DNA from: an uncultured delta proteobacterium
GTDB lineage: Bacteria; Myxococcota_A; Polyangia; Polyangiales; Polyangiaceae
Assembly (NCBI GenBank): GCA_963716725.1
Contig: CAVQUB010000022.1
Coordinates: 32,001-96,000 of the forward strand
Length of the DNA: 64,000 nt
Direction: 5' to 3'
The translations under genes and the position numbers were made by a program. The notes under the pieces are model-generated. The model worked only from the letters and a program-made list of their open reading frames with translations, did not search any database and was not told the origin of the DNA. This document shows positions 11,198 through 14,834 of the stretch, in pieces; the stretch's first letter is position 1; the number at the start of each line of letters is the position of its first letter.

Positions 11198-14100
11198 ATG
11201 AACACACACATTCGCTCGCTGATGGTCACGGCGATCAGCTCCGTGCTGATCAACTGCGGCAGCGATGCCGCCTCGCCCACCAAGTCGGGGCCGCCCGTCC
11301 CCATCGCCGACAGCCCCGCCTGCGTCATCAGCGCGGACTGTCCCGCCGGTTCGCACTGCAATCTCGGGGAGTGCGTGCAGGAGTGCAACGCCGAGGTGTC
11401 GTGCTCCGGAAAGCTGAGTTGCTCTCCGCGGGCGCGCTGCCTTCCAGCGTCCGCGCCCGACGCCGATCCCGAGCCCACGACGAGCTACGCAGGAAGCGTG
11501 AGTGCGGCTTCGTCGCTGAGCCTGCTGACCGAAGCCGACAACAAGCTCTCGATTGAGCTCTCGACCACGTCGACCGAAACGGTCCGGTACCGAGTCGCGC
11601 TGGTGGCACCCCACTTGTCGATCGCCGAGCCGCGCGGCGAGTTCGTGGGCAAGACCACGGTGTCGCTCGAGGTGCACCCGGAGCTCGCCGCGTCGCTCGA
11701 CCAACCCGGCACAGTGCGCATCCTCACCACCCTGGGCGAGGTCGTGGTCGATGCGCCCGTCCACGTGGGCATTACAGGCCGCTACCAGGGCTCACTGAGC
11801 TACGATGGCGACGCGCTCGCGCTCGGCGCCGCCCGCCTGTCGCTGGATCTGTTGGAGAAGAACGGCAACGTCTCGGCTCGCGTCGACGGCAAGACGTCGC
11901 TCTTGTTCCCCGCCACGGCCGCGGGCGATGCCACGGGCCACGGAAGCTTCGATGGCAAGACCATCTCGCTGACCCTCGCGCAGCGCATCGAGAAGGACTT
12001 CGGCAACGATCGGAATCGCTTCGCGCGCGAGATCGGTCGTCGGATCACCTTCGCGCTCGAGCCCGCTGGCGGCGGGAGGGTCGGTGGGACCTTCAAAGAG
12101 GTCATCTACGGCCTCTTCAGCGATCCCGTGGAGCTCACTGGCCGCGTGAGCTTCGAGCTGATCCGCGGCGGCGGCGCGCCCGAGTTCACGCTGGCCGCTG
12201 CTCCGGAGATGCCCGCGGGCCTGTCGGTGCCGCCCGTCGATACGTCGGCCTTCGGCTTCGTTGACACTTGTTTCTCCGTAAATGGCTCGGTGACCTGCCC
12301 GACCAAACTGTCGGATCCAGCGGCTTGCGCCCCGGCCGTGGAGGCGAAGTTCTACGACCCGCTGAGCGCCAAGCTCGAGAAGAAGGGATCCGGCGCGCTC
12401 CCCATGGCGGACGTCGCGGTTGCTTGCGAGGCGGCGCTCGGGGTCACCACGCTGTCCGGCTTCAGTGGCGACGCGGCGGGCTGCGCCCTGCCCCCGGCCC
12501 TGGCCTGCGCGACGGCGGCGTCGATCAAGGGTTCGGCTGCCAGCAGCGCGACCGCACGCGCCTTCCATCGTCAGCTCGCCCGCACGCTGGCGCCCGGCTT
12601 GCTGGTCGCGCAAGAGAAGATGGTTCAGGGCCTGTACAAGTCGTTCTCCGAGGGCGCTGCCAAAGAGAGGGACCTCTACCTCCAAGCGCAGGCGGTGCTG
12701 GCTCCGAGTGCCGCGTTCGCGTTGCAGCCGGGGCTGCTCGAGTTCATGCGCAAGACCAGCGCGGGCGACGCTTCGGGAGAGCCGGGCTCCACCGATCCCA
12801 CTGCCAGCGACTTCCCGGCGGCACGCAGCTTCGCGCGGCTCCTGCTCTTGAGCTCGAAGCTGGACGGCGAGCTGGCGCGTCTCGACGGTTCCAACGGTCA
12901 GACCGACCACGCGACGTCGCTGCGACTCGCGCAGGAGCGCGCCGTGATCACCTTCCTCGAATCGGCAGCGCTGGCGAAGGTCTTGGAAACCTGGGGGGCG
13001 TCACCACCGGCGTCGGTGGGCGTGGTGCTCAGCGGAGTGCTGGGTCCGGTGGACACGGGCTTTGCTGCGCTGGTGCAGGGGCCGTCGCGCTTCGGCATCC
13101 CGGAGGGTTTTGTGCCCTTCGTCTATCGCGCGGAAGATGCCGGCAAGGCCCCGACCAACTTCGAGCAGATGCTGGTCATGGCCCAGACCCCCGTGGCCCA
13201 GGCGGTGGATGATCAAGCCGCGTTCGAGAACAACAAGCGGACCTACGAACAGAACGAGCAGTCGCTGAAGAGCGAGCTCTCCCAGGTTCGCAGCAGCTTC
13301 GATCTCTCGCTCAAGCAGATCTGCGGCGCGGGCTTCGACCCGGACGCGATCTCGGCGCCCGGAGATTGGAAGAGCTGTGGCGCGGGCAAGACGGGCGAGC
13401 TGGGCAGCCTGTTCTTGGACATCGAGCAGTCGCTGGCCCGCCTTCAGTCTGCGGAGAACCGCATCCACGGCGCGAAGCAGAAGATGGCCATTTCGCGCGA
13501 CCAGTTGGCGGGCACCCAGGCCGTGCACGCCAGCACGCTGCGCTTCATCGACGCGCAGGGCCAAATGCTCGAGGCCATCACCTGGAGCGAAGGCATCATC
13601 AACGCCGCCCAGACCGCGATCAACACCTCGTCCGAGGCGAGCGTCTTGAACTTTGGCGCTCCGGCTGCGATGGCCGGCCTGAACGCCATGCTCGAAATGC
13701 AGAAGACCGCCCTCGCCGTCGCGCGCCAGCGGCTCCAGACCGCGCAGACGATGAAGTTCACGGCGGACGCCGCGCGCATCGAGCTGATCAACGGCATGGC
13801 CGACATTCAGAAGCAGGCCATCGACCTGGCACAGCTCGAGGTCGACATCCATCAAGACGTGATCGGCGTGCTGCAATCCAAGCTGCGGCTGTCCAACACC
13901 TTCGAGCAGGCGAAGGAGCTTCACGAAGAGCGCTCGCGCTCCCTCGCGCTGGTGTCTCAGAGCCCCGCCAAGGATCCGAGCTATCGGCTGCTGCGCGACT
14001 CCTTCGCGTTGGCCGCGCTGTCGTCTCGGGCCGACGCGCAGCGCTCGCTTTACCTGAGCGGGCGCGCGCTCGAGTACGAGATCAACCAGCCGCTCACGGC

Positions 14101-14834
14101 ACTGCCCGGCGCGGTGCTGGGCGCGCGCGACGCTGGTCGGCTCAAGAAGCTGTCCAACTGCCTGACGCAGATCCACGACGCTCACCGGGTGGCCTACGGA
14201 TCGCCCCAGCAGTACCAGACCGAGGTCAGCCTGCGGCGCACGCTCGGGATCACCGGGCCGCGCACCGACGAGGTGACTGGGCAGACGCTCACCGAGGGCG
14301 AGCTCTTTCGCATGGAGCTCTTGAAGAATCAGAACCTCGACGGCGCTGGTGGCGTCGGCCTCACCTTCGGGACGAACCTCCAGCCCGGCAACGGGCTCTT
14401 CCCCACCGACGTCTGTAGCGACAAGGTGGCGAGCGTCCGGGTGCAGCTCGTGGGCGACTTCTTGGGCGACGCCGCTGCGCAGGTGAACCTCTCGCTCTCG
14501 GGCGGCAGCGTGATGCGCCAATGCTCGGGCGACGCGCTCACGAACTGGTCGCTGGGCGCGGGCAACGGCGCCGGGTCGAGCGGCTTCGCGGTCATCCAGG
14601 CCGGGGTCAACGGCTGGAGCACCGCGCCCCCGAACACCTCGCTCTTCGGTCAGTCCGTGGCTCGCGCTTCTTGGCGAGTCGTGCTTCCCGGTCCAGCCGA
14701 CGCTCCCAGCAACGCGGATCTCGGATTTGACTCACCTCGAGGACATCGTGTTCGAGCTGACGCACAAGGCGCTGCCTCGCAGCAGCGCGCCCCTCGCGGT
14801 CGATGTCACCTGCCTCGCCGCCATCGGCGGGTGA
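11198..14834 (+). CDS. Large lipoprotein with long helical region and TcA-like C-terminal (TcB-binding-like) domain; +1 frameshift near 14723
   Basis: GGAGGAG RBS; lipobox LINC; Cys-rich N-terminal knot; long heptad-rich helices. Corrected C-terminus: PNTSLFGQSVARASWRVVLPG...NADLDLTHLEDIVFELTHKALP...TGA 14834. Confidence 0.75.

Follow-up and report, generated by a model that had tools for sequence, protein, structure and literature searches.

Canonical Tc toxins have been studied as soluble injectors of about 1.5-2.5 MDa of insect and human pathogens. The largest subunit, TcA, consists of domains for receptor binding (RBDs), an alpha-helical and an alpha-pore-forming domain, one that is neuraminidase-like, a TcB-binding domain and a linker, and the tip of its pore-forming hairpin has hydrophobic loops, as outlined in PMC11435725. 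Canonical Tc toxins are not known to carry signal peptides and are reported to be released by lysis (PMC10847048). Here we describe gene A, which lies on a 64,000-nucleotide stretch of DNA (the window; positions 32,001 to 96,000 of contig CAVQUB010000022.1, assembly GCA_963716725.1) of an uncultured delta proteobacterium of the Polyangiaceae. A preliminary description, made from the nucleotide sequence, had taken its product for a minimal TcA-like lipoprotein in which the channel and the docking domain are retained and the receptor shell is replaced by a lipid anchor.

The TcA proteins (TcdA1, TcdA4, XptA1/XptA2; P. luminescens, X. nematophila, M. morganii) share with gene A the C-terminal TcB-binding-domain fold and, at the level of profiles, the last channel helices together with the motifs AY.FE / ALEYE and W.L.(L/I)P...D..I.D(V/I)..L..(Y/H).A. 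In both, a hairpin of long helices, for gene A a predicted one, stands with its uncharged tip ahead of the C-terminal domain and a TcB-TcC-type partner gene adjoins, and for gene A a ring-type C-terminal self-interface is predicted as a further likeness. They differ in size, with 1,211 residues for gene A versus 2,100-2,540 residues in the TcA chains among the PDB matches listed and 2,637-3,600 residues in canonical myxobacterial TcAs. The alpha-helical shell, the neuraminidase-like domain and the TcA RBDs are undetected in gene A by Pfam and hhalign, and the TcA_TcB_BD model PF18276 does not match it. Gene A differs further in its putative lipoprotein signal, its many conserved cysteines and its N-terminal modules (Cys-rich, BACON-like and barrel), of which the Ig-like domain resembles BACON and PapD.

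Similar in size to gene A are chains that form the second half of a split TcA, namely TcaB of Y. pseudotuberculosis (6rwb) and YenA2 of Y. entomophaga (6ogd_B and 9c4k_B, the latter with 1,289 residues), which carry the channel and the TcB-binding domain in one chain, as proposed for gene A (Z 9.5 and 7.9 for the C-terminal domain in the structure comparison below). Their shell is built by a first half that another gene encodes, whereas gene A has no gene with a TcA-shell signature nearby, is flanked by Gly-rich lipoproteins and brings its own unrelated 600 N-terminal residues. On the side of the partner, the 'TcdB/TcaC-type' toxins (signal peptide, SpvB, integrin-like beta-propeller, RHS) outlined in PMC3482391 have the same architecture as the gene A partners. 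That paper (Zhang et al. 2012), in the text covered here, describes the toxin protein and no small TcA-like partner, with 0 mentions of 'TcdA' and 'TcaB'; the gene A family would be the missing component of these toxins. Bacterial teneurin-like proteins are presented in PMC13018210 as Myxococcota-enriched YD/RHS shells that are targeted by Sec and signal peptidase II (Sec/SPII), lipoprotein-associated and equipped with toxic tips and immunity genes. Their shells have an FN-plug and an NHL propeller, not SpvB and FG-GAP/TcdB_midN, and the same text, in the portion covered, mentions no A-type channel partner. A compact or lipoprotein TcA is unmentioned in the portions of the literature searched, including main-text passages of PMC7861908, PMC3482391, PMC12705794, PMC11435725 and PMC13018210. 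We read the gene A family as a new compact, exported TcA-like variant, common in Myxococcota and carrying no Pfam or NCBIfam name.

The C-terminal part of gene A is related to TcA

Searching 5.8 billion proteins with a word-indexed method gave 40 relatives of gene A. The best of them, P0002, has 1,211 residues and is 99% identical over 100% of the part of gene A that is read in frame 0. Residue numbers are given as in P0002 and are the same in the window up to a break of the reading frame; numbers in the model of P0002 plus 19 give protein numbers. The motifs quoted in the preliminary description were all found again, i.e., the hairpin motif at 800-832, ALEYE at 957-961, KVASVRVQL at 1076-1084, LFGQSVARASWRVVL at 1149-1163 and LEDIVFELTHKA at 1180-1191.

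As canonical TcAs for comparison, PF18276-positive open frames of Myxococcota with about 2,500-3,600 residues were taken. An alignment of 75 diverse family members was compared with the C-termini of nine of these myxobacterial TcAs by hhalign, which gave a probability of 92.5% and an E-value of 5e-7 over 277 columns. This alignment sets residues 877-1196 against the last channel helices of TcA and the beta domain that follows. ALEYE comes to stand opposite the canonical AY.FE(R)G, and W.L.IP…DLDLt.leDIvL.i.H.A opposite W.LELP…FD..SI.DV…l.YTAR, so that the W.L..P...D..I.DV...L.YTA pattern, given for TcA in the preliminary description as W.L...L.D(I/V).....YTA, is recovered by profile-profile alignment. 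The same single match was obtained with eight full-length canonical TcAs (E 1.8e-6). Among 16 controls the reversed one reached E 0.016, the best of ten column shuffles 0.27 and the best of five shuffles of 20-column blocks 0.014, and the matches of the block shuffles fall on the relocated motif block. The profiles thus indicate that residues 877-1196 are homologous to canonical TcA. As a lead only, 13 of the 30 nearest clusters by ESM Atlas features are PF18276 (score 0.94); the other 17, likewise a lead only, are unnamed clusters of 690-760 residues, mostly from Verrucomicrobiota among the members with known phylum.

The last 234 residues of the window's gene, with X at the break, were folded together with 36 relatives (pLDDT 88.6, pTM 0.81). 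With the C-terminal domain alone, Foldseek puts TcA on each of its first 21 ranks (E-values from 1.7e-5 to 1.3e-3, TMq 0.40-0.49), and the isolated TcB-binding domain of TcdA1 (6l7i_A) is matched with TMt 0.51. VIA-align, which is independent of Foldseek, was run against 48,161 PDB representatives and placed 6l7i_A on rank 1 (TcdA1 2327..2516, Z 9.9, rmsd 4.5, 145 aligned). Next come 6rwa_A of TcdA4 (Z 9.5), 6rwb_A of TcaB (Z 9.5, 175 aligned) and 6ogd_B of YenA2 (Z 7.9); over these top four TcA C-termini the root mean square deviation (rmsd) is 3.5-4.5 Å with 131-175 residues aligned. The first matches other than TcA are the furin P-domain (Z 7.0) and FlhE (6.3), and Z>=8 is reached by just three chains. 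The match of the modelled domain to TcA is of moderate size, specific in rank and in agreement with the profile alignment, and therefore the C-terminal fold is not 'unrelated'. An unrelated fold had been set beforehand as the outcome that speaks against the preliminary description; the domain is predicted to fold as the TcB-binding domain of TcA.

Mature P0002 (1,192 residues) was modelled with a 36-row alignment (mean pLDDT 77.9, pTM 0.62). In model numbering it is beta-rich at 20-302 and helical at 339-981, where helices of great length span 635-690, 714-792, 802-900 and 912-943, and residues 985-1174 form a terminal beta domain. Against the PDB, the first 17 matches listed by Foldseek are all TcA (TcdA1, XptA1, XptA2, TcdA4 and YenA2; E 7.3e-9 to 2.7e-6), with a TMq of only ~0.18 since the domains are oriented differently. 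By VIA-align, model residues 612..1173 are collinear with TcdA1 2007..2516 (Z 10.6, rmsd 18 Å, 377 aligned); this Z of ~10 takes in the beta domain and is below the chance level for long helices.

The predicted helical hairpin and ring

The arms of the predicted hairpin have ~79 and ~99 residues and are joined by a loop at model 793-801; at 1.5 Å per residue they would extend ~120 and ~150 Å. Over the 75 members, the charged fraction at the tip (805-834) is 6-12% versus 20-36% in the arms, and the mean hydropathy within the hairpin peaks at the tip. An uncharged tip of this kind would be expected of a hairpin that inserts into a membrane. Judged from the models, the similarity of the channel to TcA is at the level of the fold only. 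The preliminary claim that channel and docking domain are retained holds for the docking domain, by fold, profile and the neighbouring RHS gene, and for the channel no further than the fold.

When four copies of residues 962-1211 were folded together, ipSAE was 0.71 (0.71, 0.71 and 0.67 in the runs) versus 0.00 in the best of three controls; the mark used for this score is reached by 20 of 30 solved pairs and by 1 of 23 single chains. At least 51% of the contacts agree between the four-copy runs and the pLDDT of the partner is at least 70. Each copy contacts one neighbour via 1001-1007, 1063-1072 and 1191-1195 and the other via 1093-1097, 1130-1150 and 1164-1173. This predicted two-face, head-to-tail interface, as in a ring, may only restate the likeness to the solved TcA pentamers, because these pentamers are already part of the known structures.

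Putative export signal and N-terminal domains

Gene A starts with MNTHIRSLMVTAISSVLINC, an N-terminus of lipoprotein type (MNTHIRSLMVTAISSVLINCGSD; ATG at 11198) that leads to a cysteine at residue 20. The preliminary description had named a lipobox, and its cysteine, Cys20, is kept in at least 90% of the 36 relatives. The motif itself reads L-I-N-C in the window copy and in P0002 and is atypical at position -1; the relatives have the canonical V-G-C or A-A-C. Many cysteines are invariant or nearly so among the 36 relatives, which fits a protein living outside the cytoplasm.

The N-terminal ~600 residues comprise the Cys-rich module, the Ig/BACON-like domain, the beta-barrel and a helical domain of ~270 residues. 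Pfam finds DUF7107 in 10 and Dumpy_DPY in 6 of the 36 relatives at the Cys-rich module, and BACON_2 in 16 of the 36. The sandwich (model 76-173) matches PapD-type Ig domains (VIA Z 10.5, rmsd 2.1 Å, 93 aligned) and the barrel (model 172-304) matches 4jnj_C (VIA Z 9.8, rmsd 2.1, 103 aligned). For the N-terminal helical domain no sequence or profile relative was found. These N-terminal domains could still bind a receptor. The replacement of the shell by a lipid anchor, as first proposed, is too simple in view of the ~600 N-terminal residues that remain.

Gene A is interrupted by a frame shift in the window

In the window, gene A is part of a stop-free open reading frame (ORF) of 1740 residues that joins two lipoprotein genes in one frame; the GC content of the window is 0.64-0.71. 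A second lipoprotein-type start, MKTRILFTGLFALLSAAGCGDD, with its ATG at 14903, lies ~1,245 residues into this run-through ORF. Past ~14722, frame 0 gives PSNADLGFDSPRGHRV, which is shared with no relative, and the ~60 residues between the two halves (including LGFDSPRGHRVRADAQGAASQQ) are unmatched among the relatives. The +1 frame gives DLTHLEDIVFELTHKALPRSSAPLAVDVTCLAAIGG and runs to the stop at 14832-14834. P0002 and the other full-length relatives give uninterrupted PSNADLDLTHLEDIVFELTHKA over the break, and therefore a +1 frame shift has to be placed at ~14722-14726. This bears out the earlier proposal of two genes joined by an extra base, and the corrected length of ~1210 residues agrees with P0002 (1,211) and with the copy in G275, a genome of the same genus, where gene A is intact with 1,210 residues. 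The 35 residues that follow the shift are the same as the tail of P0002, keep all conserved columns of the family and carry the conserved LEDIV..L.HKA strand and a C-terminal Cys-Leu.

Over 13900-15500 the window was compared with Logan contigs from four runs, each belonging to a different study. The site is covered by three of them (X1, X2 and X7; three studies), and X6 has no contig there. X1, X2 and X7 all have one letter fewer at 14722 and C instead of T at 14727, and X1 otherwise matches the window over the compared region with 0 to 1 other letters per piece, so that this run may represent the sample from which the window was assembled. The window's contig is contig 22 of a 7.9-Mb, 35-contig, 84%-complete assembly. 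Because the extra base is missing from all three covering runs and G275 is intact, the frame shift is most likely an assembly artefact; it is private to this assembly and probably a local consensus error, a very recent private mutation being less probable, and the gene is probably intact in the organism. The gene is indeed hidden in a run-through ORF as described before, and most likely by this artefact. The frame shift itself is ordinary, and the 1,740-residue 'fusion' conceals both genes from length-based searches.

A true fusion protein was considered and rejected, as the second half has its own lipoprotein signal, the ~60-residue joint matches no relative, and all 40 relatives end at ~1,200-1,280 residues or are fragments. 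Programmed frameshifting was rejected as well, the base being simply missing from other assemblies.

A TcB-TcC-like RHS gene is found beside gene A

The divergent neighbour of gene A encodes an RHS protein with FG-GAP repeats, TcdB_toxin_midN (E 6.7e-25), RHS/YD repeats, an Rhs core and a tip of ~170 residues. Going by the family models, this domain order is the architecture of a TcB-TcC fusion except for the SpvB domain, which is mostly missing from the window copy. For comparison, 54 related loci were collected, all from metagenome-assembled genomes assigned to Polyangiaceae, Polyangiales, Myxococcales, Myxococcota, Sorangium or unspecific (delta)proteobacteria; they come from kindred genomes and are not independent events. 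Several of these genomes carry two or three copies, and in the window's genome gene A is single-copy. By tblastn, the RHS protein was found in 33, the upstream 547-residue lipoprotein in 38 and gene B, the downstream lipoprotein, in 28 of the 54 loci, the latter two counts being partly cross-matches between paralogues; four other flanking ORFs were found in none of the 54. Among the 34 loci with at least 4 kb past gene A, 26 have an RHS gene, which is downstream on the same strand in 23, upstream and divergent like in the window in 2 and upstream on the same strand in 1. In 12 loci the RHS frame opens no more than 120 nt from the stop of gene A, and among the loci with an RHS neighbour, stop and start often overlap.

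The partner in locus L018 has 2,056 residues, starts 19 nt ahead of the gene A stop and consists of a signal peptide, SpvB (E 9.8e-15), FG-GAP, TcdB_toxin_midN and RHS repeats; the one in L079 is alike, and the RHS protein of L004 also begins with a signal peptide followed by SpvB. From these signals, both the gene A product and the RHS partner appear to be Sec-exported. Nothing in the window RHS gene corresponds to the ~234 residues with which these relatives (L004, L018, L079) begin. From the N-terminus of L004 only residues 235-261 are matched, at window 9335-9415, and 194 bp separate the RHS ORF from the next gene (window 9335-9527). The missing N-terminus would reflect either a true 5' deletion or a gap in the assembly.

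The two Gly-rich lipoproteins that flank gene A are paralogues with a weak match of DUF1565 / LIC10774 type and a D..C.G.DG motif past the lipobox, and they may be further parts of the system. The positions of all features are collected in Table 1.

Table 1. Positions of gene A, its parts and its neighbours in the window
Feature	Position	Strand	Remark
Run-through ORF	11168..16390	+	two genes, one frame
Gene A, frame-0 part, residues 1-1175	11198..14722	+	99% identity to P0002
Putative signal peptide and lipobox; Cys20 codon 11255-11257	11198..11257	+	Cys20 after hydrophobic stretch
Cys-rich module, residues 40-85, seven invariant Cys	11315..11452	+	
Ig-like/BACON-like beta sandwich, residues 95-192	11480..11773	+	
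Second beta domain, barrel-like, residues 191-323	11768..12166	+	
N-terminal helical domain, residues 358-626, ~270 residues	12269..13075	+	
Long helical hairpin, residues 733-919, candidate channel	13394..13954	+	model helices 714-792, 802-900
Uncharged, small-residue/hydrophobic hairpin tip, residues 805-834	13610..13699	+	75-member alignment
Stretch with profile homology to TcA, residues 877-1196	13826..14786	+	hhalign
ALEYE motif	14066-14080	+	within homologous stretch
C-terminal beta domain, residues 1004-1193, TcB-binding-domain fold	14207..14777	+	predicted structure
Place of the +1 frame shift	14722..14727	+	one base fewer in other assemblies, with C at 14727 instead of T
Gene A, +1-frame tail, last 35 residues and TGA 14832-14834	14727..14834	+	
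Gene B, downstream Gly-rich lipoprotein, 495 residues	14903..16390	+	second half of run-through ORF
Upstream Gly-rich lipoprotein, 547 residues, weak DUF1565	9528..11171	+	
TcB-TcC-like RHS cocoon protein, divergent neighbour	4283..9334	-	FG-GAP, TcdB_toxin_midN, RHS repeats, Rhs core

Gene A as a likely compact, exported relative of TcA

We consider it likely that gene A encodes a compact, Sec/SPII-exported TcA relative of 1,211 residues which works as follows. The lipidated N-terminus would anchor the product to the membrane of the producer, and the N-terminal Cys-rich, Ig-like and barrel domains would lie exposed, where they may bind a target. In a ring oligomer, the hairpin of long helices with its uncharged tip would form a membrane-inserting channel, and the C-terminal beta domains would form a funnel on which the adjacent TcB-TcC-like RHS cocoon, itself Sec-exported, would dock with its beta-propeller. 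The cleaved C-terminal toxin tip of the cocoon would then be threaded through the channel; in the topology we prefer, the hairpin tip would pierce the target membrane from the cell surface. The lipid anchor together with the signal peptide of the partner argues for an assembly in the envelope of the producer, unlike that of classical Tc toxins, which takes place in the cytoplasm. What the data show is that residues 877-1196 are homologous to TcA, that the C-terminal domain is modelled with the fold of the TcB-binding domain, that the gene neighbourhood is conserved and that the tip is uncharged; the stoichiometry of the ring, the docking, the membrane that is pierced and the target organism are inferred.

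Several results weigh against this reading. Pfam and NCBIfam find nothing in gene A or its tail, and neither has a TcA model that fits the window protein, any of the 36 relatives or any of 29 distant members. The check with the TcA_TcB_BD model suggested in the preliminary description failed, as PF18276 has no match at E<=1 in the window protein, its tail or any of the 36 relatives, and none of the 22 families listed for these relatives is a TcA family. In the six-frame translation of the window's own genome PF18276 also stays below the cut-off (best 11.6 bits versus 25, elsewhere in the genome); the lack of a canonical TcA in this genome was counted at the same time as context that supports the reading. 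Searches of PDB sequences with phmmer and with the profile of 36 relatives were empty, with an HIV gp41 chimera (E 0.84) and a GH115 Ig-like domain (E 0.062) as best scores. With the narrow family alignment, hhalign against the C-terminal 600 residues of nine canonical TcAs gave E 4.4e-4 and a probability of only 33%. The profile homology is confined to the last ~320 residues, and the hairpin, the N-terminal helical domain and the beta domains are not paired by hhalign with the channel, shell, neuraminidase-like domain or RBDs of TcA; at profile level this leaves the shell undetected and does not by itself demonstrate its absence. The structural match to TcA is moderate (Z 9.9, TM ~0.45-0.5, rmsd 4.5-7 Å) and generic jelly rolls reach Z 7, and the region of the hairpin tip is modelled with pLDDT <50 at model residues 755-768, 792-805 and 832-846. 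The lipobox of the window's gene A is atypical, the RHS partner in the window is devoid of a signal peptide and of most of SpvB, an RHS neighbour is missing from 8 of the 34 loci whose flank is long enough, and pentamer, docking and membrane insertion are proposals. Set against the TcA domains listed above, the family appears to have the TcB-binding domain by fold and profile and not by Pfam, possibly the pore-forming domain, and not the rest. It would work like the core of TcA and lies outside the TcA family as currently modelled.

The same components can be arranged the other way round. Gram-negative lipoproteins face the periplasm by default. Gene A could accordingly sit in the inner leaflet of the producer's outer membrane, with its hairpin ring piercing outward from the periplasm, the cocoon docked on a periplasmic funnel and the tip exported, which would make it a Tc-derived secretion pore and not an injector. 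This opposite topology is unlikely in our view. In its favour are the default orientation of lipoproteins, the Sec-type signals on both partners (the lipobox of gene A; signal peptide and SpvB in L018, L004 and L079), the lack of a match to the shell and neuraminidase-like domains that keep canonical TcA a soluble prepore, and the treatment of SpvB plus beta-propeller as a determinant of the export pathway in the portion of Zhang et al. 2012 (PMC3482391) covered here. However, the variable N-terminal modules of the family (BACON, SBBP propeller, RCC1, PKD, Chlam_PMP) look surface-exposed and target-binding, and orphan toxin-tip cassettes imply that the toxin still must enter another cell. It is less probable that gene A is a TcA-derived tether, in which the C-terminal domain would keep the RHS cocoon at the cell surface and the helices would be a stalk and no channel, with no translocation through it. 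The channel likeness at fold level, with helical matches under Z 13 possibly due to chance, and the low confidence of the modelled tip would suit a tether, as would the bacterial teneurin-like RHS proteins, which PMC13018210, in the text covered, takes to be surface displayed. A stalk, however, has no need of a tip that is uncharged and made of hydrophobic or small residues over 75 divergent members; the last channel helices lie inside the stretch with TcA profile homology, and the predicted self-interface is of the ring type seen in the TcA funnel.

That gene A is decaying, with a real frame shift and a partner truncated at its 5' end, is improbable to nearly the same degree. The shift is present in the window as assembled, the adjacent RHS ORF lacks the first ~234 residues of its relatives, and an 84%-complete assembly of 35 contigs is not judgeable by itself. 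The extra base is missing, however, from all three covering runs of three studies, of which X1 is otherwise identical; the substitution five bases from the shift is typical of a local consensus error, the 35-residue tail is identical to P0002 with all conserved positions kept, and G275 of the same genus is intact. Least credible of all, and very improbable, is a convergent or generic likeness (jelly-roll and coiled coils) of a protein with an unrelated role beside RHS genes. No curated family model matches gene A, the structural match has a TM of ~0.45-0.5, and generic beta sandwiches reach Z 5-7. Yet hhalign gives E 5e-7 over 277 columns versus 0.014 for the best of the 16 controls, TcA fills the top ranks in two independent structure searches, and the matched domain stands at the same place as in TcA, C-terminal and past long helices, beside a Tc-type partner gene.

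Beyond the relationship of gene A to TcA, we suggest tentatively, and with more doubt than belief, that the family is the unrecognised 'A' component of Sec-exported SpvB-propeller-RHS toxins, i.e., a shell-less, lipid-anchored, ring-forming channel in the envelope of the producer. If true, myxobacteria would have a contact-dependent or secretion-type Tc machine directed against neighbouring cells, and not a soluble injector released by lysis, and the spring-loaded TcA shell would be dispensable for Tc-type translocation. The form of 1,200 residues would then be the minimal functional core and the forms of 1,500-2,350 residues in Myxococcota graded intermediates. A half-size family with only the channel-plus-funnel core, exported and lipid-anchored, would define a minimal translocation module and is a candidate delivery or export device for the widespread 'TcdB/TcaC-type' RHS polymorphic toxins. 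Structural studies of Tc-type translocation would also gain a smaller object in such a compact core.

Further RHS sequences and gene order

Orphan tip cassettes are typical of polymorphic toxins and appear to be present at the window locus. A stretch of ~100 residues, NNPSTLVDRDGREPDGL…VVTRAG, occurs in three copies at window 4286-4840, 2745-3404 and 1253-2302 (all on the reverse strand), of which the third differs by one residue. One copy ends the RHS gene and two lie downstream of it, each followed by a different tail, and the third runs on into an RHS-core-like piece (PF03527, E 1e-4). Together the repeats have the look of orphan RHS toxin-tip cassettes set in an array, which is a feature of polymorphic toxin loci.

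Elsewhere in the window's genome, on another contig (G000:C5:26472-26936), a second open frame with TcdB_toxin_midN was found (1,604 residues), which may be an RHS toxin that has no A-type neighbour of its own. In locus L082 (G275:C3:521000-540999) the RHS gene, the 547-residue lipoprotein, the intact gene A of 1,210 residues and gene B follow each other on one strand. It follows that the RHS gene owes its divergent orientation in the window, L003 and L004 to a rearrangement inside this group.

Size and distribution of the family

A profile of the C-terminal half was searched against 1.84 billion representatives and found 1,168 clusters (at 50% identity) with E<=1e-3, 708 with 1e-10 and 227 with 1e-30. 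Most of the 1,168 clusters have 1,120-1,300 residues. The 29 distant or longer members carry N-terminal BACON, SBBP propeller, DUF7948, RCC1, PKD or Chlam_PMP domains and no TcA Pfam domain. Of 301 sampled Myxococcota genomes, 40 have the family, 14 have a canonical TcA and none has both; in the genus of the window no canonical TcA (PF18276) was found among these 301 genomes.

The family includes mid-size forms in open frames of 1,500-2,350 residues. Three loci of other Myxococcota families (L079, L080 and L081, from G012, G004 and G011) have mid-size relatives of gene A with 1,811-2,187 residues; their N-termini are of signal or lipoprotein type, and Pfam finds no TcA domain in them. One of these adjoins an SpvB-FG-GAP-TcdB_midN-RHS gene, and contig C231 of G011 carries three mid-size relatives, two of them within the 20 kb analysed. 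The mid-size relatives may bridge the compact and the canonical forms.

The canonical myxobacterial TcAs (L061-L069 and L071-L076) have an extra C-terminal stretch that ends in a second, similar DPDKL.DL.LV..Y motif. In L061, the sole locus measured, the PF18276 match stops ~160 residues before the C-terminus of the protein. The extra stretch looks like a duplicated terminal beta domain; the solved TcAs are aligned to their very ends.

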